Assembly (NCBI GenBank): GCA_964510945.1 | Contig: CAZEED010000001.1 | Span: 98,774 to 162,773 of the forward strand | Length of the DNA stretch: 64,000 nucleotides | Reading direction: 5' to 3' | Source: an uncultured Candidatus Saccharibacteria bacterium | Lineage (GTDB): Bacteria; Patescibacteriota; Saccharimonadia; Saccharimonadales; JAGQNJ01 | Part shown: one piece after another, positions 16,462-36,034 of the stretch | Layout of the letters: each line of letters begins with the position of its first letter | Numbering within the stretch: position 1 is the stretch's first letter | Position numbers and translations under genes: made by a program | The notes under the pieces: generated by a model | Database searches by the model: none | The model's input: only the letters and a program-made list of their open reading frames with translations | Told to the model about the DNA's origin: nothing

Positions 16462-16546
16462 GCCGGAGTGGTGGAATTGGTAGACACGCTAGTCTTAGGA
16501 ACTAGTGCCGCAAGGCGTGAAGGTTCGAGTCCTTTCTCCGGCACCA
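16462..16546 (+). tRNA. tRNA-Leu (anticodon TAG), long variable arm, encoded CCA
   Basis: Acceptor gccggag/ctccggc. Anticodon loop cttaggaa. Long extra arm. T-arm ggttcgagtcc. Confidence 0.9.
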
Positions 16547-18711: not shown

Positions 18712-19992
18712 ATGCAAGTAAAAAGACAAAATATCACTGATACAAAATTAACACTGACGGTTTCGGCTGATCCTAAAGATCTTGAGACAATTAAACAGAT
18801 TACACTCGAAAGACTTCGATCATCCGTAAAGCTACCAGGTTTTCGTGAAGGAAAAGTTCCTATCAATCTAGTCGAGAAAAACGTTGATCAGCAGACTTTA
18901 CAGACAGAGTTTATGGATGAAGCGCTAAATCAGTTGTATCCGCAGGCTGCGAAAAACGAAAAAATTCGACCTGTCGATAGACCCAAGATATCTATTAAAA
19001 AGTTCGTACCGTATGCAGACTTAGAATTCGAAGCAGAAGTTGAGATATTAGGACCAATAAAGCTCGCTAATTACAAAACCATAAAAAAACCTCTAAATAA
19101 AGTGTCTGTAACGGATAAAGAAGTTGACGATGTGTTGGATAATTTAGCTATAAGACAATCTAATAAAACTGAAGTTAAACGATTAGCAAAAAATTCTGAT
19201 GAAGTTTGGATTGATTTTAGTGGAGTCGACTCAAAAAACCAGCCCATTCCTGGTGCAGACGGTAAAGACTATCCTTTAGTACTTGGCAGTAAAACGTTTA
19301 TTCCTGGTTTTGAAGAAAAGTTAGTTGGTAAAAAAGCCAAAGATGAAGTCACATTTACACTGACATTTCCTAAAGACTATGGTGCAAAAAAACTTGCCGG
19401 TCAAAAAGTCACATTTACAGTGACCGTTAAAAAAGTCGAAGAAGTTACAAAACCCAAGATTGACGATGATTTTGCAAAAAACGCCGGACCATTCAAAAAC
19501 CTCGCAGGGCTAAAATCTGACATTAAAGCCCAGCTGTTGGCTGAAAAGCAAAAACAGGTGTTGCAGCAACAAGAATCAGATATTATTCGTGAAGTTACTG
19601 AAAAATCGACTGTTTCTATACCAGATTCACTTGTTACTGATCAAGTTGAACGACTGCTTCAAGATTTTAAACAAGATCTTACTTATCGTGGTTTAACCTA
19701 TCCAGAGTTTTTAAAACAAGAAGGTTTTACTAAAGAATCGTATAAAGAAGAAGTATTACTCCCTGAAGCGAAGAGTAGAGTTAAAGCTGGACTAGTATTG
19801 GCAGAAATAGCTGAAAAAGAAAGTATAAGTGTGTCGTCTGATGAGGTTGACGCAAGGATCCAGACTTTAAAAGCTCAATATACTGATCCAAAAATGCACG
19901 AAGAACTAGATAAAGAAGATTCAAAACGAGATATTTCGTCTAGGTTAATGACTGAAAAAACTATCAACCAATTAGTTAGCTATTCAAAATAA
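18712..19992 (+). CDS. tig: Trigger factor
   Basis: Ribosome-binding N-domain (GFREGKVP). FKBP-type PPIase region. C-terminal chaperone arms. Confidence 0.9.
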   Translation: MQVKRQNITDTKLTLTVSADPKDLETIKQITLERLRSSVKLPGFREGKVPINLVEKNVDQQTLQTEFMDEALNQLYPQAAKNEKIRPVDRPKISIKKFVPYADLEFEAEVEILGPIKLANYKTIKKPLNKVSVTDKEVDDVLDNLAIRQSNKTEVKRLAKNSDEVWIDFSGVDSKNQPIPGADGKDYPLVLGSKTFIPGFEEKLVGKKAKDEVTFTLTFPKDYGAKKLAGQKVTFTVTVKKVEEVTKPKIDDDFAKNAGPFKNLAGLKSDIKAQLLAEKQKQVLQQQESDIIREVTEKSTVSIPDSLVTDQVERLLQDFKQDLTYRGLTYPEFLKQEGFTKESYKEEVLLPEAKSRVKAGLVLAEIAEKESISVSSDEVDARIQTLKAQYTDPKMHEELDKEDSKRDISSRLMTEKTINQLVSYSK

Positions 19993-19995
19993 ATA

Positions 19996-20024
19996 TTGAC
20001 AAAACCACCCTTAACTTATACAAT
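19996..20024 (+). promoter_or_regulatory. Consensus-like promoter (-35 TTGACA, 17 nt, -10 TACAAT) ending 6 nt before an ATG (possible leaderless start)
   Basis: Read directly from the sequence. Confidence 0.45.
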
Positions 20025-20030
20025 AGTGTG

Positions 20031-20408
20031 ATGTCAAGGAAACCCGAATTAAACTTTGAAGACGTTCGTTCAAATGAAGATTTAGTGAATCTAGGTGTTG
20101 AGCTAGAAAGAAGATACCCTGAGCTTGAACTTGGAATTCTAACAGTCATGTCAAGATACATTGATACACAAAGAGGACCGAATGATGTTGATAACGCAGT
20201 TAACGGATTAAAAAGTTTGGTTATGAGCGGCATCGATCATAGCGACATGACTGAACAAGTAGTACAACCTCATGGTAGCGCACTTACCTCAACTACGTAC
20301 AGAAGGCTCGAAAGACGAGGAATCCTACCTGCTTTTCGGGTTGACGTATCGAAGTCGTCAGCACCAGATCATGGGGTCATTGGAAAGATCTTAACACGTA
20401 AAAACTAG
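20031..20408 (+). CDS. Hypothetical protein (about 125 aa), possibly translated from a leaderless mRNA
   Basis: ORF between tig and clpP. No recognisable motifs. Stop overlaps the CIRCE-like element. Confidence 0.35.
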
Positions 20409-20431
20409 CACTCTTGACACGAGAGTGCCAA
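20405..20431 (+). promoter_or_regulatory. CIRCE-like operator (CTAGCACTC-N9-GAGTGCCAA) with embedded TTGACA -35 upstream of clpP
   Basis: Matches the CIRCE consensus TTAGCACTC-N9-GAGTGCTAA at 16/18 positions. Lies 40 nt before the clpP ATG. Confidence 0.6.
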
Positions 20432-20470
20432 TTAATGTATTCTATTTGTACAATAAAAGGAGAGAAAATA

Positions 20471-21070
20471 ATGTCCACGAAAGCATCATCAGTATTAATC
20501 CCGACAGTTATTGAATCAGATGGTAGAGTTGAACGGGCTTATGATATATATTCGCGTTTACTCAAAGATCGAATTATATTTTTAGGCACAGACGTTAACG
20601 AGCACACTGCTAATTTAATTGTTGCTCAATTGCTGTTTCTTGAGTCTGAAGACCCAAAGAAAGATATTAAGCTATATATCAATAGTCCAGGTGGTAGTGT
20701 TTATGACGCTCTGGCAATTTATGACACTATGCAGTTTGTAAAAAACGACATAGAGACGGTTGGAATCGGTATCCAAGCTAGTGCAGCGGCATTTTTATTA
20801 AGCTCTGGAACTAAAGGTAAGCGGTTTTTGCTAAAAAACGCCACGGCAATGATCCATCAGCCTTCAGCAGGTACTCGTGGCAAGGTTACTGATATGGAGA
20901 TTGACCTTAAAGAAGGTATAAGAATTAAGCATAAATTAAACGAAATTATGGCCAAAAATACCGGTAAACCTATCAAGCAAGTCGAAAAAGACATGGACCG
21001 AGATTATTGGATGACATCTGATGAAGCAGTAAAATACGGCCTAGCCGACAAAGTCATCACCAACCGCTAA
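20471..21070 (+). CDS. clpP: ATP-dependent Clp protease proteolytic subunit
   Basis: ClpP family (Ser-His-Asp protease fold, GxSxG region with ASAAAF, MIHQP). ATG 20471 with AAAGGAGAG RBS, in frame with the longer track ORF. Confidence 0.9.
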
Positions 21071-21082
21071 AATACCCACTTT

Positions 21083-21682
21083 ATGAGTACATTGCAAAAT
21101 CGATCTGAAAAATATTTAGTATCAGTTGCCGAAGCGACTCAATGGATTGTTGAAATGGGTTTACCGGAAGAACATATACCCCAATACAATTCTTTAAATA
21201 GATTGTATTGGGGTGGACATTTTGGTCAGGCAGTAATAGTTCTCGCTAACCAAGAGCCAGTAAATCGCAGTATGGATCTAGGTCTAATCTATGCCGCAGT
21301 AAGTGCTCGTAACTCTTGCAGCTATTTGGGGACACCAATTAAATCTCGACAAGATCAATTCGCTAAATCGTATAGTAAATTCGGTAAAGCATGGGCAGCT
21401 GCAGATAATAGGTTCCAGAAGGGATTAGAGCCCAGTATGATGGGTGCGTTAGCATTTGTGTTCGCTCCATCAAAGAGCGAATTAAGTTCTCCAATACCTG
21501 GTGGTGTACTTATCGCGGCACATCCCTCAAATTCTGAATATTTGCCGGATTTCTGCGGATTGTATGGGTGGGATACTAATAGATATGCGCCTTTTGAGGA
21601 TGAAGATCATAAAGTCGGCGCAGCAGAAGACCATTACCCTAATAGACTCGGATTCCTATTACCTGAAGTTCAGCCAAACTAG
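21083..21682 (+). CDS. Hypothetical cytoplasmic protein (199 aa)
   Basis: ORF with no recognisable motifs. Occupies the position where clpX normally follows clpP. Confidence 0.55.
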   Translation: MSTLQNRSEKYLVSVAEATQWIVEMGLPEEHIPQYNSLNRLYWGGHFGQAVIVLANQEPVNRSMDLGLIYAAVSARNSCSYLGTPIKSRQDQFAKSYSKFGKAWAAADNRFQKGLEPSMMGALAFVFAPSKSELSSPIPGGVLIAAHPSNSEYLPDFCGLYGWDTNRYAPFEDEDHKVGAAEDHYPNRLGFLLPEVQPN

Positions 21683-21696
21683 TCTTGGATCAATAA

Positions 21697-21786
21697 ATCT
21701 ATGAAGACACGGATAGGGATTACTGGATGACTTCGGACGAAGCAGTAAAATACGGTCTAGCCGACAAAGTCATCACAAACCGTTAG
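21697..21786 (+). pseudogene. Diverged duplicate of the clpP 3' end (encodes [29 protein letters not shown])
   Basis: About 80 nt alignable to clpP 20990-21070. Many synonymous differences, with the encoded peptide identical except for a single Met-to-Thr substitution. Confidence 0.7.
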
Positions 21787-21824
21787 TACTTGCTAATTTT
21801 GAATATCGAGAATACAGTTTTAAT

Positions 21825-22457
21825 ATGGCGAAACTAGAACAGATAACTGCACATCGAGCTACTACACAATTAATGCCAGTGCGTCGGTTCGTCGAAAGAC
21901 ATAGATTTGATTTATCAAGAAATGCACCAGCTACACTTGATCGTTTCGGATCATTTTTCTCAACCGTTGTTAATGTGGGTAGATACGCAATCGATCCGTC
22001 AATCTTACAGTTTTTAGTCAGAGAAGATAAAACAAACCGCATGATGGGATTTGCAACTATAATTCCTAACATTGTTGTTGAGCCGCCGGTAGGAGCAGCT
22101 GTTACAGGAAATTATCTTGATTACGTTCTCTCTGACTCGGTATCAGAGTCAATTCACGAGTCTGTTTCTAAGGCTTTACTTAGACGGAACGAAAAGTATG
22201 AACTAAAATATCATGGCATATCAGAGTCTAGATTTGTCGGAGAAGAAACGTATGCTCAAGTGAATACTATTGCAGTTAATCGGTTCCCTGAAAGAGATAG
22301 GTATGACATACCCAACAGGGGTTTAATCCGAATGATTCCACCCCTAACGGGGGTAGTTTCGCTTGAATCACCACAAGTTACTGGTCTTGAAACGCAAGGA
22401 TTCGTTCCTTCAGATCAGGTTGTGTTTCACTATATGTCAAACCGAGCAGTCAGTTAG
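21825..22457 (+). CDS. Hypothetical protein (210 aa)
   Basis: ORF with no recognisable motifs. Sits 39 nt after the clpP-fragment copy. Confidence 0.55.
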   Translation: MAKLEQITAHRATTQLMPVRRFVERHRFDLSRNAPATLDRFGSFFSTVVNVGRYAIDPSILQFLVREDKTNRMMGFATIIPNIVVEPPVGAAVTGNYLDYVLSDSVSESIHESVSKALLRRNEKYELKYHGISESRFVGEETYAQVNTIAVNRFPERDRYDIPNRGLIRMIPPLTGVVSLESPQVTGLETQGFVPSDQVVFHYMSNRAVS

Positions 22458-22631
22458 TTTAGCATTTCCTACTACAATAAGCGCTTGACATAATTAAATT
22501 GTTATATAAACTATGATTCAAGAAGTAGGGTAAGCGGGCCTTGCTATGATTTATCAAAAAATTGTGTGAGCTACCCCTTAGAGATCTTCGTTCAAAATCA
22601 ATCTAACAGATTCAAGGAGAACTTGCTCTAT

Positions 22632-25600
22632 ATGGCAAAGTCGCTAACGCTCACGTCTGGTAAACGGCAATATTTCACAAAAACAGAAAACATCTTAGAT
22701 CTACCAAATTTAGTTGACCACCAAAACAAATCTTTTCAATGGTTCATCGAAGAAGGCCTCGGCGAATTACTAGCAGAAGTTAGTCCAATCGAAGACTACA
22801 CAGGCACAAAATTATCACTAAGCTTCAAAGACTATCGATTCGAAAAGCCAAAACTAACAGAACAAGAAGCTCGCGAGAATAACGTAAGTTTTGACGCGCC
22901 TCTTAAAGCGACAGTTGTTCTTACTAATAAAGTTACCGGTGAAGTTAAAAAACAAGAGATTTATCTTGGCGATTATCCATGTATGACCTCACGGGGAACT
23001 TTTGTGATTAATGGCGCAGAACGTGTTGTAGTAAGCCAGCTTATTAGATCAGCTGGCGTTTTCTTTACTAGCGAACAAAGCGCAGGGAAGAATTTGTACG
23101 GAGCCAAGGTTATTCCCGGACGAGGTGCGTGGCTAGAATTTGAGACATCCGCCAAAGGCGCAATGTTTGTAAAAATTGATCGAAAACGAAAAATTCCTGT
23201 TACTACACTGCTTAGAGCATTAGGTGTTTCTGATGCCAAGATGAAAGAAGAATTTGCTCATGTTGATCAAGGTAGTGAAAGTTACATTGACATGACTCTT
23301 GATAAAGATCCGGCTCGAGGCACAAATGAAGCCTTAATTGAAGTCTACAGACGTCTTCGACCAGGGGATCTTGCTACAGTTGATAACGCTCGTAGCTTGC
23401 TTGAAAACATGTTCTATAACTTTAAACGTTTTGATTTTAGTCGTGTCGGAAGATACAAAATCAACAAACGCTTAGATATCGATCTACCAAATACTATCGA
23501 AAACCGAGTGATGAGATTAGAAGACCTCATCGCAATTATTGCTGAAATTATTCGACTTAATAATACACAAGAACCGGCTGATGACATTGACTCGCTTGCA
23601 AATAGGCGAGTCAAATTAGTTGGAGAGCTTGTTCAGCGTCAGTTCCGTATCGGATTACTTCGAATGGAGAGAAACACTAAAGACCGAATGTCGATGAGTG
23701 AGATTGAGACAGTTACACCAGGTCAACTGATTAACGCACGTCCAGTTGTTGCTGCGGTTAGAGAATTCTTCGCTAGTTCGCAGTTATCTCAGTTTATGGA
23801 TCAGATTAACCCGTTGTCAGAGCTTGCACACAAAAGACGATTGAGCTCAATGGGCCCGGGTGGATTATCAAGAGAGCGAGCCGGCTTTGAGGTTAGAGAT
23901 GCGCACGCTACACACTATGGCCGTATTTGCGCGGTTGAAACACCTGAAGGTGCCAATATTGGTTTAGTGTTAAACATGGCAACTTATGCTCGAATTAATG
24001 ATTACGGATTTATTGAAACGCCTTATCGAAAAGTAACTAACGCTGTAACAGCCAAAAAAGCTGCCGGACACATTGCCGCAGTAAACCTAGAAAATGAAAA
24101 AGGCGCAGTAATCGTTAAAGCAGGTGAAAAAATCTCAGATGCTCAGGCTAAAAAACTCGAAGCCGTTAAAAAACAAGTTACTTGGCCGATAAAAGCCAAA
24201 GCAACCGATGAAATAATATATTTAGATGCCTTCGAAGAAGGAAAAGCCGTTATTGCCAGTGCTGGAGAAACAATTGATGACGACGGTTATTTCGTTAATG
24301 ATCGTGTTTCTGCTCGAATCCGACTAAAAACTGGTGAGATCGACGCTAACGAAGTTACTCATATGGATGCTTCTAGACGTCAGATCATTGGATCAAGTGC
24401 GGGATTGATTCCATTCATTGAGAAAAACTATGTTTATAGGAGTTTGATGGGAAGCAACCAGCAACGTCAAGCAGTACCGCTAATTAATCCACAATCTCCA
24501 ATTGTTGGAACTGGTCTAGAATCGACTGTAGCTGAAAATACTGGACAACTAATTGTTGCCGAGGAAAATGGAGAAATCATCAAAGCCGAAGCTGATGAAG
24601 TTGTAATTAAATACAATAAATTAGGTAAGAGAAGCTACTATCCACAACATTTTGTACGAAGTAACGAAGGAAGTTGTATTAATCAAAAGGTCGTGGTAAA
24701 TACTGGCGATAAAGTTAAAGCCGGTACACCGCTTATTGAGGGAATGTCTATTCAAGGTGGAGAGTTAGCGTTAGGAAAAGACCTAATCGTGGCATTTATG
24801 CCATGGAAAGGCTATAACTTTGAAGACGCTGTAATTATCTCTAGAAAACTTGTTGAAGATGATACTTTGACATCAATTCATATCGTCGACTTTATGACTG
24901 AAGTTAGAGAGACAAAACTTGGACCAGAAATCGTTACAAGAGATATTCCGAACGTCTCAGAAGAAGCATTAAGGCACCTTGATGATGACGGAATAGTGCG
25001 GATTGGTGCAGAAGTACATCCTGGGGATATTTTAGTAGGAAAGATTACACCAAAGGGTGAGCAAGAGCTGTCAAGCGAAGAACGACTTCTTCGAGCAATC
25101 TTTGGTGAAAAAGCTAAAGATGTTAGAGATACATCACAGCGCATGAGTAACGGTAAACACGGAAAAGTTGTTGGAGTCAAAGTATTCTCTAGAGAAAATG
25201 GTCATGAACTAAAAGCCGGTGTCATCATGCAGATTCAAGTCTTTGTGGCACAAATGCGCAAGATCGCTGTAGGTGATAAATTAGGTGGTCGACACGGTAA
25301 CAAGGGTGTAATCGCCCGAATACTTCCAGTTGAAGATATGCCATTTATGGAAGACGGAACGCCTGTAGACATCATCCTAAACCCTCTAGGTGTGCCGAGT
25401 CGTATGAACATTGGACAATTATTTGAGACTCACTTAGGTATGGCTGCGCACGCTTTAGGCTTTAAAGTTGCTACTCCACCATTTAATGGCGTGCCTCTAG
25501 AAAAGATCCGTAGCCTCCTTAAAGAAGCGGGACTTCCTGAAACAGGCAAACAACAGTTATATGATGGAAGAACTGGCGATAGATTTACAGAATTAACTAC

Positions 25601-33241: not shown

Positions 33242-34048
33242 CTATTTATTTATATTCGTTCCGTCTCCGAATAATTTACCAGAATTAAAATCAGCGCGCA
33301 TCCCCGTATAATCGCCAGTAGGTAACTGTATACTCCTAACCCTTATTGCAGCAATATCTATAGGATCTCCCATGACCGCTACATACATTCTCGCTTTTAC
33401 TTGTCTATTGACTGGGGTGCCATAGTCATCAGTGTCATATATGTACTCGTTAAAGCCGTAGCAACCTATTCTACGTGCAGTCTTATTACTTTCTTGTCGA
33501 TGGTCATAACTACTATTACTAGTTGTATACCATGATCTTGTTCCTTCTCTGTATAAACGAATGCTAACATGCGTATTCCAACTTTTTGCTTTCCAGCAAA
33601 GCTGTACTGCCATCGGACGATTACGAGTGTTTTCGGGCTTTGGAATGATAAAAGACTTTGATATATAGGTCATTCTTGGCGTATATAGACTAGTTCTAGA
33701 TCTCCAACCATTTATTTTACGCCCTTTAGAATTAGTGGATACTTTGATCTTGTGGCCAACAGACCTCCAATTTACTTGCGGAATACTAGTATCATACTGA
33801 TCTTCATTATTATTTTCTGCTGCTGCGTCGTCGTAGTTGAGTACTTTAATAGGTTTTTTCTCTACTATATCCCCAGCCGGATATGTTTTGCTGTAACCCT
33901 TCGATTGCGCGTCTGAATTTCTGATGTTGAATAAATCATTTTTGTATGCGAATACCCCTAAAGCTAACACTAAACCAATCAATAGCGACATAACTAATAT
34001 TGGTTGAAATCTACGATTTGTAGTTTTAGTTTTATTATTTGACTTCAT
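33242..34048 (-). CDS. Paralog A of an unknown secreted/membrane-anchored protein family (268 aa)
   Basis: Basic N-terminus plus single TM anchor. Conserved GWR, (M/L)A(V/L)xxCW(K/R), (H/Y)R(Y/Q)E, I(G/A)CYGF blocks shared with the two upstream paralogs. Confidence 0.7.
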   Translation of the reverse strand: MKSNNKTKTTNRRFQPILVMSLLIGLVLALGVFAYKNDLFNIRNSDAQSKGYSKTYPAGDIVEKKPIKVLNYDDAAAENNNEDQYDTSIPQVNWRSVGHKIKVSTNSKGRKINGWRSRTSLYTPRMTYISKSFIIPKPENTRNRPMAVQLCWKAKSWNTHVSIRLYREGTRSWYTTSNSSYDHRQESNKTARRIGCYGFNEYIYDTDDYGTPVNRQVKARMYVAVMGDPIDIAAIRVRSIQLPTGDYTGMRADFNSGKLFGDGTNINK

Positions 34049-34080
34049 ATGTTTAGTCTCATTTCAATTATTTAATATAA

Positions 34081-34881
34081 TTATCTTGTGATGTCCGTTT
34101 CGAATTGTCTCAGGTAATATCCATTACTGTCGTGTTCTTGTGGTTTTGTTGGTTCAAAGATTTTAATAGATGCCAGTTCAATGCCACCTTCAGGTACTTT
34201 AATGAAGAGTTTTGCTTTTATGGATTTTTTTATTCTTACCGCGTATTGTCCTCGATGTATTGGCTCACTCTGCGGATGTGATCTAGGTACGACAGATTTA
34301 TAGCCAACATCATAAAAACCCCAGCAAGCAATTTCGCGATACCGATTAGGATCGCTTTCATATCGATGGGTGAAATTTATATGATATGCTCCATCCTTGG
34401 TCCCCCACACTTTATTGATATCTCTACTCAAACGTAGTTTTATGGTTGTATTCTTTTCTAGAGCTCGCCAGCAAACATACACAGCCATTGGACGTTTTGA
34501 TGTAGGAATGGTAAACCATTTACTGAAGTAGACCCATCCTTCGTTATCTAGAGTGTGTTTTTCATCGGCGTGATTCATCCTCCAACCATCAATCATAGGG
34601 CCACCTGGTTTAGCGGGCATACGAATATTCCCGCCTTGAGATTTAACCGATACTAACTTACCTCTGTAATACTTGAATGGTGTGGGTTTGTAATTAACTA
34701 TTTTTCCCGCAGCATAGGTTTTATTATATCGTTTAGAATCCGCCGACGAATCTTTTAGATTCAGCAAATCCATACTAAAAATAACAAGTCCAATTACGAA
34801 TATTAATATAATTGAAAAAGTTATAATTTTTGATTTATTTGATAATTTAAGATCCTTATTTTTCTTTTTTTTGTTTGCCAT
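34081..34881 (-). CDS. Paralog B of the same family (266 aa)
   Basis: MANKKKKNK..signal-anchor..IRMPAKPGGPMIDGWR..MAVYVCWR..IACWGFYD. AAGGA RBS. A8 tract in codons 3-6. Confidence 0.7.
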   Translation of the reverse strand: MANKKKKNKDLKLSNKSKIITFSIILIFVIGLVIFSMDLLNLKDSSADSKRYNKTYAAGKIVNYKPTPFKYYRGKLVSVKSQGGNIRMPAKPGGPMIDGWRMNHADEKHTLDNEGWVYFSKWFTIPTSKRPMAVYVCWRALEKNTTIKLRLSRDINKVWGTKDGAYHINFTHRYESDPNRYREIACWGFYDVGYKSVVPRSHPQSEPIHRGQYAVRIKKSIKAKLFIKVPEGGIELASIKIFEPTKPQEHDSNGYYLRQFETDITR

Positions 34882-34912
34882 ATTTGTCCTTAGCTACATT
34901 TATTAGTTATCT

Positions 34913-35842
34913 TTAATTGGTGATGTCAGATTCAAACTGTCTATCGTAATAATTTGCACCGAGTTTAGATCTTTCAGGCGGTTGTGTTGGGTGAAAAACT
35001 TTTATTGAAGCAATTTCTACTTGGCCACGAACCTTTATATTAATTCTAGCCTTAATGGATTTGGATTTATTCATTTTTTTCATGTATTGCCCTGGATATA
35101 TTGGCTCGTTTTGCGGATGTGATCTAGGCACGACACGTTCATAGGCGATATCGTAAAAACCCCAACATTTTATTTTTTGCCACTCATCGTCACCATGTTC
35201 ATAACGATGTATATAGTTCATTATAGGCGCGCCATTTTTGTCTGACCATAATTCTCGTCTATTCTTGTTACTGAGCGTAGGACCTGCGAATAGAAGTTTT
35301 AATGATGTTTCTTTGCCGGACAATGATCTCCAGCAGACATATAAAGCTAGCGGTTTATCACTCTTGTCTTTTGGGATATTTATTTCTTTTGAAAAATAAG
35401 ACCAGTCAGGTAAATATGTAGTAAGTCTAGGGTTTACAGCTTTTTTATTGGGTTTTAACTTTTTAAAAAGTTTATCGTAGGTTGATGAGTTAACTAATGG
35501 CGATCGCCATCCCTTAATCATAGGACCTCCTGGTTTGGCAGGCATTCTTATGTTCTTTCCTAAAGATTTCATCATTACAAAATCATCGTCGCCGTATATT
35601 CCGCTATCTTTACGAACTTTTGTTTTGCCGTAGTTAACGATTTCGCCGGCTGGGTAAGTTCTATTGTAATTCTTAGAATCTGCAGATGAGTCTCTTAGAT
35701 TCAGCAAATCCATACTATAAATTAATAATGCAAGTACAATTACTAATAAAATTGAAAAAGTTATAATTTTTGTTTTATTTGATAATTTAAGATTCTTATT
35801 TTTCTTTTTTTGTTTGGCATTTTCTCTCCTATACTTAAGCAT
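34913..35842 (-). CDS. Paralog C of the same family (~309 aa from ATG 35842; track TTG at 35869)
   Basis: About 45% identity to paralog B overall, but near-identical DNA over the first ~60 codons and upstream region. Has an A7 tract where paralog B has A8. Confidence 0.65.
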   Translation of the reverse strand: MLKYRRENAKQKKKNKNLKLSNKTKIITFSILLVIVLALLIYSMDLLNLRDSSADSKNYNRTYPAGEIVNYGKTKVRKDSGIYGDDDFVMMKSLGKNIRMPAKPGGPMIKGWRSPLVNSSTYDKLFKKLKPNKKAVNPRLTTYLPDWSYFSKEINIPKDKSDKPLALYVCWRSLSGKETSLKLLFAGPTLSNKNRRELWSDKNGAPIMNYIHRYEHGDDEWQKIKCWGFYDIAYERVVPRSHPQNEPIYPGQYMKKMNKSKSIKARINIKVRGQVEIASIKVFHPTQPPERSKLGANYYDRQFESDITN

Positions 35843-36034
35843 TATACATAACACACTAATTGATTCCAATTTCTTATTTTATGTACTCTATTAACTATAA
35901 TTAAGAGTTAAAAGAATAATCCAAAAATGATTCTTTACTTGTATGCGTATTTTCGCTATTATATTCAGGTATCTCGCGTGAGTATTATATACTTATGCTA
36001 AATAATTAAGTAATTAACAGGAGTAACAACTAAA

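Follow-up and report, generated by a model that had tools for sequence, protein, structure and literature searches.

The insert downstream of clpP in this Saccharibacteria (TM7) genome is, from comparisons with related strains, a polymorphic single-gene insertion in the clpP-ORF3 operon. We consider it an ordinary case of related lineages gaining a gene through recombination, though one recorded with unusual clarity. Our favored account of its origin, held with moderate confidence, is a homologous crossover in clpP combined with an illegitimate joint (an HFIR-like event), with later spread and loss through ordinary recombination. The features concerned are given in Table 1, in coordinates of the window, i.e. 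the whole 64-kb stretch of DNA that was analysed.

Table 1. Features of the region from the clpP promoter-like site to ORF3
Feature	Position	Strand	Basis
clpP promoter-like site (TTGACA, 18 nt, TATTCT)	20414..20443	+	consensus scan
clpP, 199 codons, intact working copy	20471..21070	+	Pfam CLP_protease E = 1e-77; NCBIfam PRK00277 above cutoff
Repeat copy 1 (t1), 3' tail of working clpP	20979..21070	+	repeat search and allele comparison
Left end of cassette: final 4 codons of clpP (ACC AAC CGC TAA) and 12-nt spacer AATACCCACTTT	21059..21082	+	comparison with L011 and L094
ORF2, inserted orphan gene, 199 codons	21083..21682	+	absent from L003-L009 and L093
21-nt linker TCTTGGATCAATAAATCTATG from ORF2 stop to clpP relic; right cassette junction	21683..21703	+	same junction in L011 and L094
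Relic (t2), 5' part: clpP-like non-resident allele, a decaying pseudogene fragment	21704..21738	+	8 differences in 35 nt from L005
Relic (t2), 3' part: displaced resident clpP end with TAG stop	21739..21786	+	equals L005 clpP end; contiguous with ancestral spacer and ORF3
Ancestral 38-nt spacer, clpP to ORF3	21787..21824	+	100% identical in L001-L009 and L011 over the aligned 94-100% of its length
ORF3, resident gene of the clpP-rpoB slot, 210 codons, outside the insertion	21825..22457	+	directly after clpP in all genus-level relatives

A second clpP tail downstream of ORF2

A repeat search found a direct repeat of 91 nt (20979-21069 versus 21695-21785) that is 84% identical, with a spacing of 716. 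When both strands of the entire window were scanned without gaps, these two copies, t1 and t2, agreed at 76/91 positions, whereas the next best pair reached 42/91 and the background had a mean of 23.3 and a standard deviation of 4.3. A likeness this far above the background and the next best pair excludes chance. The working ClpP ends in K-D-M-D-R-D-Y-W-...-N-R-stop, and 21703-21786 likewise reads as a ClpP-like C-terminus of 27 residues followed by a stop.

The initial annotation had described the two tails as identical save for one Met-to-Thr substitution, with about 12 synonymous differences between them. Met to Thr (ATG to ACG) is indeed the sole non-synonymous change in the last 81 nt, but the first aligned residue differs as well (K to E, at the margin of the homologous stretch). 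The figure of 12 holds for nucleotide differences in these 81 nt, but only 10 of them are synonymous, the others being the Met/Thr change and the stop codon (TAA/TAG); GAT/GAC was missing from the list of codon pairs. By the Nei-Gojobori method, there are 10 changes in 16.2 synonymous sites (62% divergence) and 1 in 61.8 non-synonymous sites (1.6%), for a dN/dS of ~0.013, which resembles that between clpP orthologues. This signature of purifying selection bears out the earlier view that the downstream copy is not a recent local duplication. It also agrees with descent from a different, selected clpP allele. The paralog proposed as the other possible source is not involved: a tblastn search with ClpP revealed no second clpP in the 64-kb window, the tail fragment aside. 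The 83-nt relic is to be annotated as a clpP pseudogene fragment, neither a small gene nor evidence of a clpP paralog. The ClpP protein itself is identical in 12 contigs from related strains.

Relatives with and without the insert

ORF2 is absent from a set of empty-site relatives, L003-L009 and L093. Seven contigs combine an identical ClpP with the lack of ORF2, the clpP stop being followed by the same 38-nt spacer and then by ORF3. The initial proposal that recombination with DNA of another lineage added ORF 21083-21682 and left the extra clpP tail as a scar is supported. The further suggestion that ORF 21825-22457 (ORF3) was brought in is contradicted, as the same spacer and ORF3 follow clpP in every empty-site relative. 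Alignment of related genomes showed the two-copy arrangement to be polymorphic and not universal, and the fragment does not belong to a longer functional ORF; its 5' part is decaying in relatives, with an in-frame stop in L094 and a change of DRD to YLE in L011.

Removal of exactly 716 nt from the window yields the empty-site strain L005, with the 5' part of t1 joined to the 3' part of t2, and any 716-nt deletion register from 21023-21738 through 21040-21755 gives its exact sequence. The two are 100% identical from tig through ORF3 into the rpoB leader, a stretch of 3.9 kb, as against 90.9% in hisS and 93.1% in distal rpoB; we read this block of identity as a recent recombination tract. Among close relatives in general, the RpoB N-terminus is 98.5-99.2% identical. 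Within the repeats, t1 matches the resident allele of L005 and L007 over 20979-21039 and differs from L005 at 21040, 21061, 21067 and 21070 only. From 21739 on, t2 and the spacer and ORF3 that follow it show no difference from the resident allele of L005; a non-resident allele is confined to ~35 nt at the start of the relic (21704-21738). The polarity implied by the initial annotation is therefore reversed: the downstream copy is mostly the displaced resident end of clpP, and the imported unit comprises the last ~12 nt of the working clpP, including its stop, the 12-nt spacer, ORF2 and the 21-nt linker, which arrived together. L005 may be either a never-occupied ancestor or a revertant produced by recombination between t1 and t2. 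In L007 a window-type clpP switches to an L003-type allele within the tail, which marks another breakpoint.

Besides the window, the cassette is carried by two more diverged lineages, L011 and L094. The right junction is the same in all three, ATCAATAAATCTATG and then AA(G/A)A, and this indicates that the cassette arose only once. They also have in common a clpP left end of CGC TAA with closely similar spacers, an end that is missing in the empty-site relatives with a conserved spacer (L003-L009). On this left side the window equals L011 from ACCAACCGCTAA on, L094 having ACAAACCGCTAA and the spacer AATACTCATCAT, and identity between the window and L011 rises at about 21051 from about 88-92% to 97-100%. 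The dS values from the window to L011 and L094 are 0.065 and 0.29 for ORF2, 0.59 and 1.05 for clpP, and 0.105 and 0.54 for ORF3. Because ORF2 is much less diverged than clpP (dS 0.07-0.29 versus 0.59-1.05), the cassette has moved between lineages. Both tails, as judged from the allele comparisons, are mosaics of clpP alleles. The scar is limited to one genus-level group: a second copy of the own clpP tail was found in 0 of 80 Saccharibacteria species representatives, and a scan of metagenome contigs with the tail core GAYGAAGCAGTAAAATAYGG gave 28 loci, all from outside this genus (ClpP identity 58% or less) and none with two copies.

The inserted gene itself is an orphan. It had no match in Pfam, NCBIfam, PADLOC or PHROGs, its PDB profile search reached an E of about 1 only, and its AlphaFold2 model was unusable (pLDDT 34). 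It forms a single cluster among 5.8 billion, to which an exhaustive HMMER search added one distant homologue, P0003; another candidate, P0002, is a repetitive protein (GGGHFGQI repeats) whose match was rejected as spurious. Across the three lineages, ORF2 has a dN/dS of 0.19-0.40. Its sole homologue in a native context, 29% identical, lies between clpP and rpoB in L012, with neither ORF3 nor a relic. The 21-nt linker has no significant similarity to the rpoB promoter region (p = 0.23), nor do ORF2, ORF3 and ORF4, the gene of a second cassette, have significant pairwise similarity.

This second cassette is found in L011 and L128, in which ORF4 (GNAT-like) is followed by a third clpP relic of 24 nt. 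Relative to the stop, the relics thus start at -83 nt in the ORF2 cassette and at -24 nt in the ORF4 cassette. In L129, a 33-nt spacer separates clpP' from an ORF4 homologue, after which comes TTGACAAAC (the rpoB promoter); no relic is present, and the clpP tail end and spacer ahead of the cassette-borne ORF4 are homologous to these native ones. The ORF4 joint in L011 reads TAA-AC-GACAAAGTT, in which GACAAA is common to the donor-type downstream sequence and the clpP tail, a match that was noticed post hoc with L129 as a 71% identical proxy donor. ORF4 in L011 also has a promoter-like element of its own, TGGTATAAT. The distant homologues of both cassette genes that lie between clpP and rpoB in other Saccharibacteria, with no duplication, are in native arrangements of the donor type and point to the likely donors.

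Origin of the insertion

We propose that the donor would have been another Saccharibacteria lineage with an ORF2-family gene directly 3' of clpP, and the recipient a genome with ORF3 after clpP. On the left side, a homologous crossover inside the highly conserved clpP would have given the working gene its imported codons and stop. On the right side, the foreign DNA, 21 nt past ORF2, would have been linked back into the clpP tail of the recipient through a non-homologous joint of the microhomology type, and the last ~83 nt of the resident clpP would thereby have been pushed downstream as a non-functional relic, still abutting the old spacer and ORF3. The route would be homology-facilitated illegitimate recombination (HFIR), most plausibly following natural transformation; we infer both the HFIR step and this route of DNA entry. 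HFIR combines one homologous and one illegitimate end, the latter usually with 3-10 bp of microhomology (PMC3240628), and cultivated Saccharibacteria have been shown to be naturally competent and to integrate DNA by homologous recombination (PMC10633639). The left junction lies within homologous clpP sequence, where identity to L011 jumps at ~21051 and the tail switches allele. The cassette, i.e. the imported clpP end, ORF2 and the relic, would later have spread among related lineages, and been lost from some, via homologous recombination in which clpP provided the left arm and the relic, together with ORF3 further on, the right. Transfer with clpP and the relic as arms would make both tails mosaics of clpP alleles shaped by purifying selection in functional genes.

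Several observations sit less easily with HFIR. The sole ORF2 homologue in a native context, a distant stand-in for the donor, is 29% identical. The recipient typically loses about as much DNA by HFIR as it gains (PMC3240628), and no loss is seen here. Both right joints fall in the last 90 nt of clpP, which proximity to the anchor can explain, but which would also fit a mechanism aimed at the tail, for example the integration of a circle by a single crossover. A more far-reaching idea, which we regard as quite unlikely, is that the cassette is a recombinase-free self-targeting unit, its two clpP tails serving as arms for one universally conserved target. Such a unit would enter any competent Saccharibacterium with a similar clpP end, regardless of the genes downstream, and restore clpP, and successive arrivals would accrete as an integron-like array under the clpP promoter, with the 3' parts of the relics refreshed from functional alleles.

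Among other explanations, a Campbell-type single-crossover integration of a small circle is unlikely, though not negligibly so. The circle (~716 bp or a multimer, made of a ~90-nt clpP tail and ORF2) would have been integrated by host homologous recombination or by a site-specific recombinase acting in trans, and could excise and re-integrate through its direct repeats, in the manner of a miniature integrative element that supplies a replacement gene end. Integration of circles by a single crossover that duplicates the homologous segment is documented (PMC3240628), and the geometry fits it well. Exactly one 716-nt unit sets the window apart from L005, with a 17-nt stretch common to both copies, GAAGCAGTAAAATACGG at 21023-21039 and 21739-21755, as its bounds; the left copy is host at its 5' and foreign at its 3' end and the right copy the reverse, the exact product of a single crossover; and the clpP tail was targeted by two different cassettes. 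The same mosaic is expected, however, if a linear donor that already has the duplication recombines into an empty site. Integrases and transposases are absent from the cassette and from the 25 large ORFs scanned, the junctions of the two cassettes differ (-83 and -24 from the stop) and have no common core or inverted repeats at their ends, the homology in the ORF4 relic amounts to only 24 nt, and circles are unlikely because transformation imports single strands. We give far less credence to a local tandem duplication of the clpP tail in this lineage, followed by divergence, with ORF2 arising or captured between the copies. That the repeat is direct, the DNA between its copies being on the same strand, would suit it, but divergence of 62% at synonymous against 1.6% at non-synonymous sites is impossible for a non-functional local copy. 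Moreover, each half of each copy matches alleles in other strains, the unit is missing from a strain with 3.9 kb of full identity, and an ORF2 homologue occupies the same slot in a distant lineage. That the duplication is an assembly artefact, created by chimeric metagenome assembly of co-existing strains, is barely credible. The assembly is of the metagenome type and strain mixtures are evident in the population, but the same arrangement was recovered from independent runs and assemblers (SRR13355620, SRR13355621 and SRR13355622 for L001, L002 and L010; DRR404984 for L011; SRR14932549 for L128; JGI 3300046786 for L094), with lineage-specific sequence differences among the recoveries and with ORF2 intact under purifying selection.

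A separate question, compatible with either mechanism of origin, is whether the relic has been kept as useful. Its 3' 60 nt contain an ATG mini-ORF (21727-21786, 19 residues) that stops 38 nt before ORF3, at the ancestral stop position, and might preserve termination-reinitiation or another cis context needed for ORF3 expression at the time when clpP ended there; for ORF3, neither a promoter nor a strong Shine-Dalgarno sequence could be recognised. In both the window and L094, the exact ClpP C-terminus is encoded by the 3' 63 nt of t2, with differences at 3/63 nt, and the 5' 21 nt differ at 8/21 and include a stop in L094. This comparison covers three lineages only, and 3/63 is indistinguishable from the ORF2 divergence of 9.3%. 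The gradient is explained, with no selection, by repeated replacement or gene conversion from functional clpP tails, and the same position in L011 precedes ORF4, which has its own promoter-like element. On balance, we find retention for such a role improbable.

Known systems and the clpP-rpoB slot

One close parallel to the clpP insert is e14/phage 21 in E. coli icd, with its displaced icdC. In both cases the insert brings a replacement 3' end, so that the target gene stays intact and its original end is displaced as a pseudogene fragment, and in both the two gene ends differ mainly by synonymous changes. The clpP insert has direct repeats of the target 3' end (t1 and t2) at its two borders and restores the clpP ORF, whose protein is that of the empty-site strains. 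Loss of e14 re-fuses icd into a chimeric functional form (PMC13626634), of which L005 would be the equivalent here. However, e14, a prophage of 15 kb, encodes a site-specific integrase and has SOS-induced excision, whereas the clpP insert consists of 716 bp with one orphan gene and no recombinase, and has two junction positions. An integrase-mediated element of this type was rejected on finding no recombinase in the insert or in the 25 large ORFs, and neither a fixed core nor inverted-repeat arms.

A different likeness is to the minimal mobile elements (MMEs) of naturally transformable Neisseria, where a pair of conserved genes encloses whole-gene cassettes that vary from strain to strain, lack mobility genes and move by homologous recombination in the flanks (PMC3082526). 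The clpP-rpoB slot is alike in that clpP and rpoB flank varied cassettes. As for movement, a scan of 25 large ORFs of the window gave no mobility genes or recombinases, recombination tracts and breakpoints are seen and dS is lower for ORF2 than for its flanks; the cassette does, however, carry repeats in the form of the clpP tails. MME exchange normally swaps the content of the slot and leaves no scar, whereas the clpP cassettes were added serially beside the resident gene, each followed by a duplicated end of the upstream gene. HFIR products in S. pneumoniae, Acinetobacter baylyi and Pseudomonas stutzeri resemble the clpP insert in having one homologous junction, here in clpP; the other junction here would be the one without homology, and the 6-nt GACAAA is a putative microhomology for the ORF4 cassette. 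Laboratory HFIR usually deletes about as much as it inserts (PMC3240628), whereas here the joint would lie so near the anchor that nothing was lost and the anchor region was duplicated. Island accretion at tRNA/tmRNA 3' ends and integron arrays likewise involve serial insertion at one site by a conserved gene, with units bounded by a repeat of the target end; ORF2, a cassette next to clpP with no recognisable promoter, is also probably read from the clpP promoter upstream. The clpP slot differs from them in having no integrase, attC-like inverted repeats or tRNA target, and its repeats are protein-coding ends of 83 and 24 nt. We rejected an integron gene cassette, as there is no inverted repeat at 21683-21790 and no integrase, and also a diversity-generating retroelement, as the scanned ORFs include no reverse transcriptase and mismatches fall on adenines in 3/15 cases with t2 as template and 4/15 with t1.

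The locus offers a base-resolved natural example of how gene content can grow in the reduced genomes of Saccharibacteria/CPR without mobile-element machinery. Recombination would be anchored in a conserved essential gene, genes that occupy the equivalent slot in other lineages are added, not swapped, and each event leaves a datable scar, which fits the recently shown natural competence of Saccharibacteria. It also flags the clpP-rpoB slot as a site of accessory genes, encoding orphan and GNAT-like proteins, that would be expressed under the clpP promoter. The TTGACA/TATTCT site ahead of clpP is likely the promoter of a clpP-ORF2-ORF3 transcript. The promoter and terminator scan was overall at chance level. 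The interval from clpP to ORF3 holds no promoter- or terminator-like site save one chance-level match at 21045-21073, no Rfam family was found in 19900-23000, and ORF2, which lacks a promoter of its own, is probably expressed from that of clpP.

Among 67 species representatives, the slot ranges from 161 to 5262 nt and holds 65 ORFs in 40 clusters. The states we observed are ORF3 only, ORF2 with ORF3, ORF2 and ORF4 with ORF3, an ORF2 homologue only (L012) and an ORF4 homologue only (L129). ORF3 possibly has a GNAT-like fold: for its AlphaFold2 model (pLDDT 51.8, pTM 0.56), nearly all of the top 50 Foldseek matches in the PDB were GNAT-fold acyltransferases, all of them weak (E 0.04-0.2). Homologues of ORF3 down to 35% identity lie directly between clpP and rpoB, with a gap of just 3 nt in L097.

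The two copies of the clpP 3' end

The last ~90 nt of clpP were found again 716 nt downstream (20979-21069 against 21695-21785), with 76 of 91 nt identical. In an ungapped comparison over the whole window and both strands, the runner-up for this tail segment matched at 42 of 91 positions (background mean 23.3, sd 4.3). The downstream copy is in frame, encoding 27 ClpP-like residues and then a stop. Twelve differences separate the two copies over the last 81 nt: 10 are synonymous, one is non-synonymous (Met to Thr) and one falls in the stop codon. The resulting dN/dS is ~0.013 (Nei-Gojobori; 10 synonymous changes over 16.2 sites, 1 non-synonymous over 61.8 sites). The extent of the match and the mostly synonymous differences confirm the diverged second clpP 3' end reported in the initial annotation. 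No second clpP was found in the window by tblastn.

An exact-protein look-up recovered the identical ClpP protein in 12 contigs. Three of these (L001, L002 and L010) have the same arrangement as the window, and seven (L003-L009) are without ORF2, clpP being followed by 38 nt and then ORF3. In an alignment of the tails, the window is identical to one of the seven, L005, from 21739 on, which takes in the 3' part of copy 2 (the downstream copy, or relic) with its TAG stop, and after it the 38-nt spacer and ORF3. Copy 1, the tail of the working clpP, equals L005 up to 21039 and beyond this differs at 21040, 21061, 21067 and 21070, the end codons reading ACC AAC CGC TAA in copy 1 and ACA AAC CGT TAG in L005. 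Deleting any 716-nt register from 21023-21738 to 21040-21755 reproduces L005 exactly, and the stretch common to both copies at the register bounds is GAAGCAGTAAAATACGG.

Because copy 2 is identical to L005 from 21739 and removal of 716 nt gives L005, the downstream copy is mostly the resident clpP end, displaced. The imported DNA consists of the final codons and the stop codon of the working clpP, the 12-nt spacer behind them, ORF2, the 21-nt linker and the initial ~35 nt of the relic, where 8 positions depart from L005. ORF3 is a resident gene: homologues with as little as 35% identity are found immediately downstream of clpP and ahead of rpoB (with a 3-nt gap in the related locus L097). The essence of the initial interpretation, that recombination brought in a gene and left a clpP tail as a scar, therefore holds, while its suggestions that ORF3 may have been imported and that the downstream copy is the foreign one do not. 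L005 itself would either never have been occupied or have lost the cassette.

Coordinates of features, with nucleotide identity between the window and L005 where given
Feature	Position	Description
clpP	20471-21070	Pfam CLP_protease, E = 1e-77
tig through ORF3 into rpoB leader (at least 3.9 kb), ORF2 cassette aside	18712-22632	100% identity
hisS		90.9% identity
151-aa ORF		93.2% identity
distal rpoB		93.1% identity
ORF2	21083-21682	inserted gene
ORF3	21825-22457	
tRNA-Leu	16462-16546	
125-aa orphan ORF	20031-20408	tig-clpP slot
ORF3-rpoB intergenic	22477-22640	rpoB start 22632
Second cassette	L011 8613-9505 (also L128)	directly after ORF2 cassette; ORF4 and third clpP tail relic

The tract identical to L005 holds tig, the 125-aa ORF, clpP, ORF3 and the rpoB leader, and the DNA on either side is 7-9% diverged; the tract records a very recent recombination between backgrounds that differ at about the level of species. 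In another contig without ORF2, L007, clpP is of the window type up to GGC (21040) and thereafter has an L003-type tail. Together with the L005 tract, this allele switch and the identical ClpP protein of L003-type strains despite a clpP dS of 0.51 show that the clpP end, where a conserved gene meets a variable slot (the clpP-rpoB interval), is a recurrent recombination breakpoint. Just upstream of hisS, L003 (1-2035) and L004 (1-2018) encode a large serine recombinase and an FtsK/SpoIIIE protein together with a small ORF; the window, whose equivalent position is near tRNA-Leu, lacks all of these, and they probably mark a mobile element integrated beside this tRNA gene.

ORF2 and the slot in other lineages

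ORF2 is nearly an orphan. It matched a single cluster among 5.8 billion (P0001, 94% identical), and an exhaustive search gave as real matches only P0001 and the distant P0003 (29% identical, E = 2e-4). ORF2 had no family match, and its AlphaFold2 model reached a pLDDT of 34. Its dN/dS of 0.19-0.40 indicates a real gene. ORF2 also occurs in the related loci L011 (DRR404984) and L094 (a JGI metagenome). Both have the right junction of the window, ATCAATAAATCTATG followed by the tail; the left end is identical to that of the window in L011 (CGC TAA and the 12-nt spacer) and similar in L094 (ACAAACCGCTAA, spacer AATACTCATCAT), which indicates one origin of the cassette. The linker has no significant similarity to the rpoB promoter. 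Between the window and L011 or L094, respectively, dS is 0.065 and 0.29 for ORF2, 0.59 and 1.05 for clpP, and 0.105 and 0.54 for ORF3. As ORF2 is several-fold less diverged than the adjoining clpP, it must have moved between these lineages after their split.

In its 5', cassette-linked part the relic is decaying in L094, with an in-frame stop (GAAAATATGTAGATAGATAAC), and in L011, with DRD changed to YLE (GAAGACATGTATTTAGAATAC); in the window (GAAGACACGGATAGGGATTAC) this part keeps the ClpP reading with Met to Thr. The window and L094 both retain the exact ClpP end in the 3' 63 nt. Such a gradient is what repeated refreshing of the 3' part, by crossover or gene conversion with functional tails, would produce, and this would also explain a signature of purifying selection on a non-functional fragment.

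L011 and, independently, L128 carry a second cassette, giving the order clpP, first tail, ORF2, second tail, ORF4, third tail, spacer, ORF3. ORF4 (234 aa) has weak GNAT motifs, and the third tail is a 24-nt clpP relic, GACAAAGTTATCACAAACCGTTAG. In L011, the spacer upstream of ORF4 contains TGGTATAAT 7 nt before the ATG, possibly an extended -10 element that serves a leaderless mRNA. In L129, clpP is followed by a 33-nt spacer, an ORF4 homologue (71% identical) and TAG-TTGACAAAC, the rpoB promoter, with neither ORF3 nor a relic; this is the native arrangement, and in L011 the sequence ahead of ORF4, both tail end and spacer, is homologous to its counterpart there. The right joint in L011, TAA-AC-GACAAAGTT, places GACAAA in both the donor-type downstream sequence (as in L129, with its 71%-identical homologue) and the clpP tail GCAGACAAAGTT. 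The distant ORF2 homologue likewise sits natively between clpP and rpoB in L012, without ORF3 or relic, and more distant ORF4 homologues lie downstream of clpP in L040, L046 and L059. Among 67 species representatives, the slot measures 161-5262 nt (median 720) and holds 65 same-strand ORFs of at least 100 aa in 40 clusters. A duplicated clpP tail was found in 0 of 80 species, and a metagenome scan for the core of the tail found no relatives.

Origin of the arrangement

The simplest single-step origin would be a homologous crossover inside clpP, with the foreign end joined illegitimately into the resident tail just downstream of the crossover. The topology would be that of an ordinary replacement: the donor gives its own tail end and the recipient retains its tail beyond the joint, so that the tail is seen twice without any recipient DNA having been duplicated. 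This would match homology-facilitated illegitimate recombination, which by definition combines a homologous end with an illegitimate one, most often with 3-10 bp of microhomology (PMC3240628). Natural competence, with integration of DNA by homologous recombination, is a trait of Saccharibacteria (PMC10633639). Later spread could proceed from a linear donor to an empty site, its arms pairing with the 5' and 3' parts of the recipient tail, which would yield the exact mosaic of alleles in copies 1 and 2; recombination between these copies would be a route of loss.

The main rival is integration of a circle by a single crossover, possibly via a recombinase acting in trans. Its predicted product is the same, and it accounts for both cassettes hitting the clpP tail, but a scan of 25 large window ORFs gave no recombinase or transposase domain, the junction positions differ (-83, -24) with no common core, and homology in the second relic is limited to 24 nt. 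The allele mosaic and the dN/dS result rule out local duplication, and independent recovery in six data sets rules out an assembly artefact.

The arrangement at clpP resembles that of e14 and phage 21 in E. coli icd (PMC13626634), which likewise show a replacement 3' end, a displaced icdC fragment, synonymous differences and a chimeric gene upon loss of the insert; unlike these, it involves neither integrase nor prophage. The Neisseria minimal mobile element (PMC3082526) similarly has a slot with different cassettes between conserved genes, whereas insertion at clpP adds a cassette and leaves a scar behind. The integron and DGR readings were rejected, their defining features being absent. We file the case with recombination-driven gene gain at a variable slot that leaves a duplicated gene end. 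Mechanistically unsurprising, it shows in a clean and datable natural case gene accretion without a recombinase in a CPR genome.

Neighbourhood and expression

The window is housekeeping DNA, with the order M1 aminopeptidase, NusA, ClpC/ClpB-type ATPase, RadA, PBP, RecG, RsmD, tRNA-Leu, HisS, 151-aa ORF, trigger factor, 125-aa ORF, ClpP, ORF2, ORF3, RpoB, RpoC and translation genes. The closest ClpP proteins among species-representative genomes are all from Saccharibacteria/Saccharimonadales, at no more than 82% identity. A promoter and terminator scan gave clear TTGACA-type promoter-like sites upstream of the 125-aa ORF, clpP and rpoB, no clear one upstream of ORF2 or ORF3, and no terminator-like site between clpP and these ORFs, so both are likely co-transcribed from the clpP promoter. 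The imported stop codon makes a promoter-like match at 21045-21073 (CCGACA, 17 nt, TAAAAT), which stops 9 nt short of the ORF2 ATG; it is possibly meaningless, as the scan overall was at chance level.

ORF3 had no sequence-family match. When its low-confidence AlphaFold2 model (pLDDT 51.8, pTM 0.56) was compared with the PDB, nearly all hits were GNAT-fold acyltransferases, GNAT toxins among them, and every hit was weak (E 0.04-0.2). The tig-clpP slot is variable too: in place of the 125-aa orphan, L008 and L009 have a 143-aa ORF and L095 has one of 194 aa. Identity in the ORF3-rpoB intergenic region is 97-100% with L011 and L094 and 98% with L097, against only 75-95% in the flanking coding DNA, which suggests a strongly constrained rpoB promoter or leader; no Rfam family matched this region or the rest of 19900-23000, and the predicted fold of the region was no better than shuffles (z = -0.18). 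Elsewhere, three adjoining minus-strand ORFs without Pfam match (33242-35869; 268, 266 and 318 aa) have stretches of 201 nt and 106 nt in common at ~80% identity, and thus form a tandem paralogous family.
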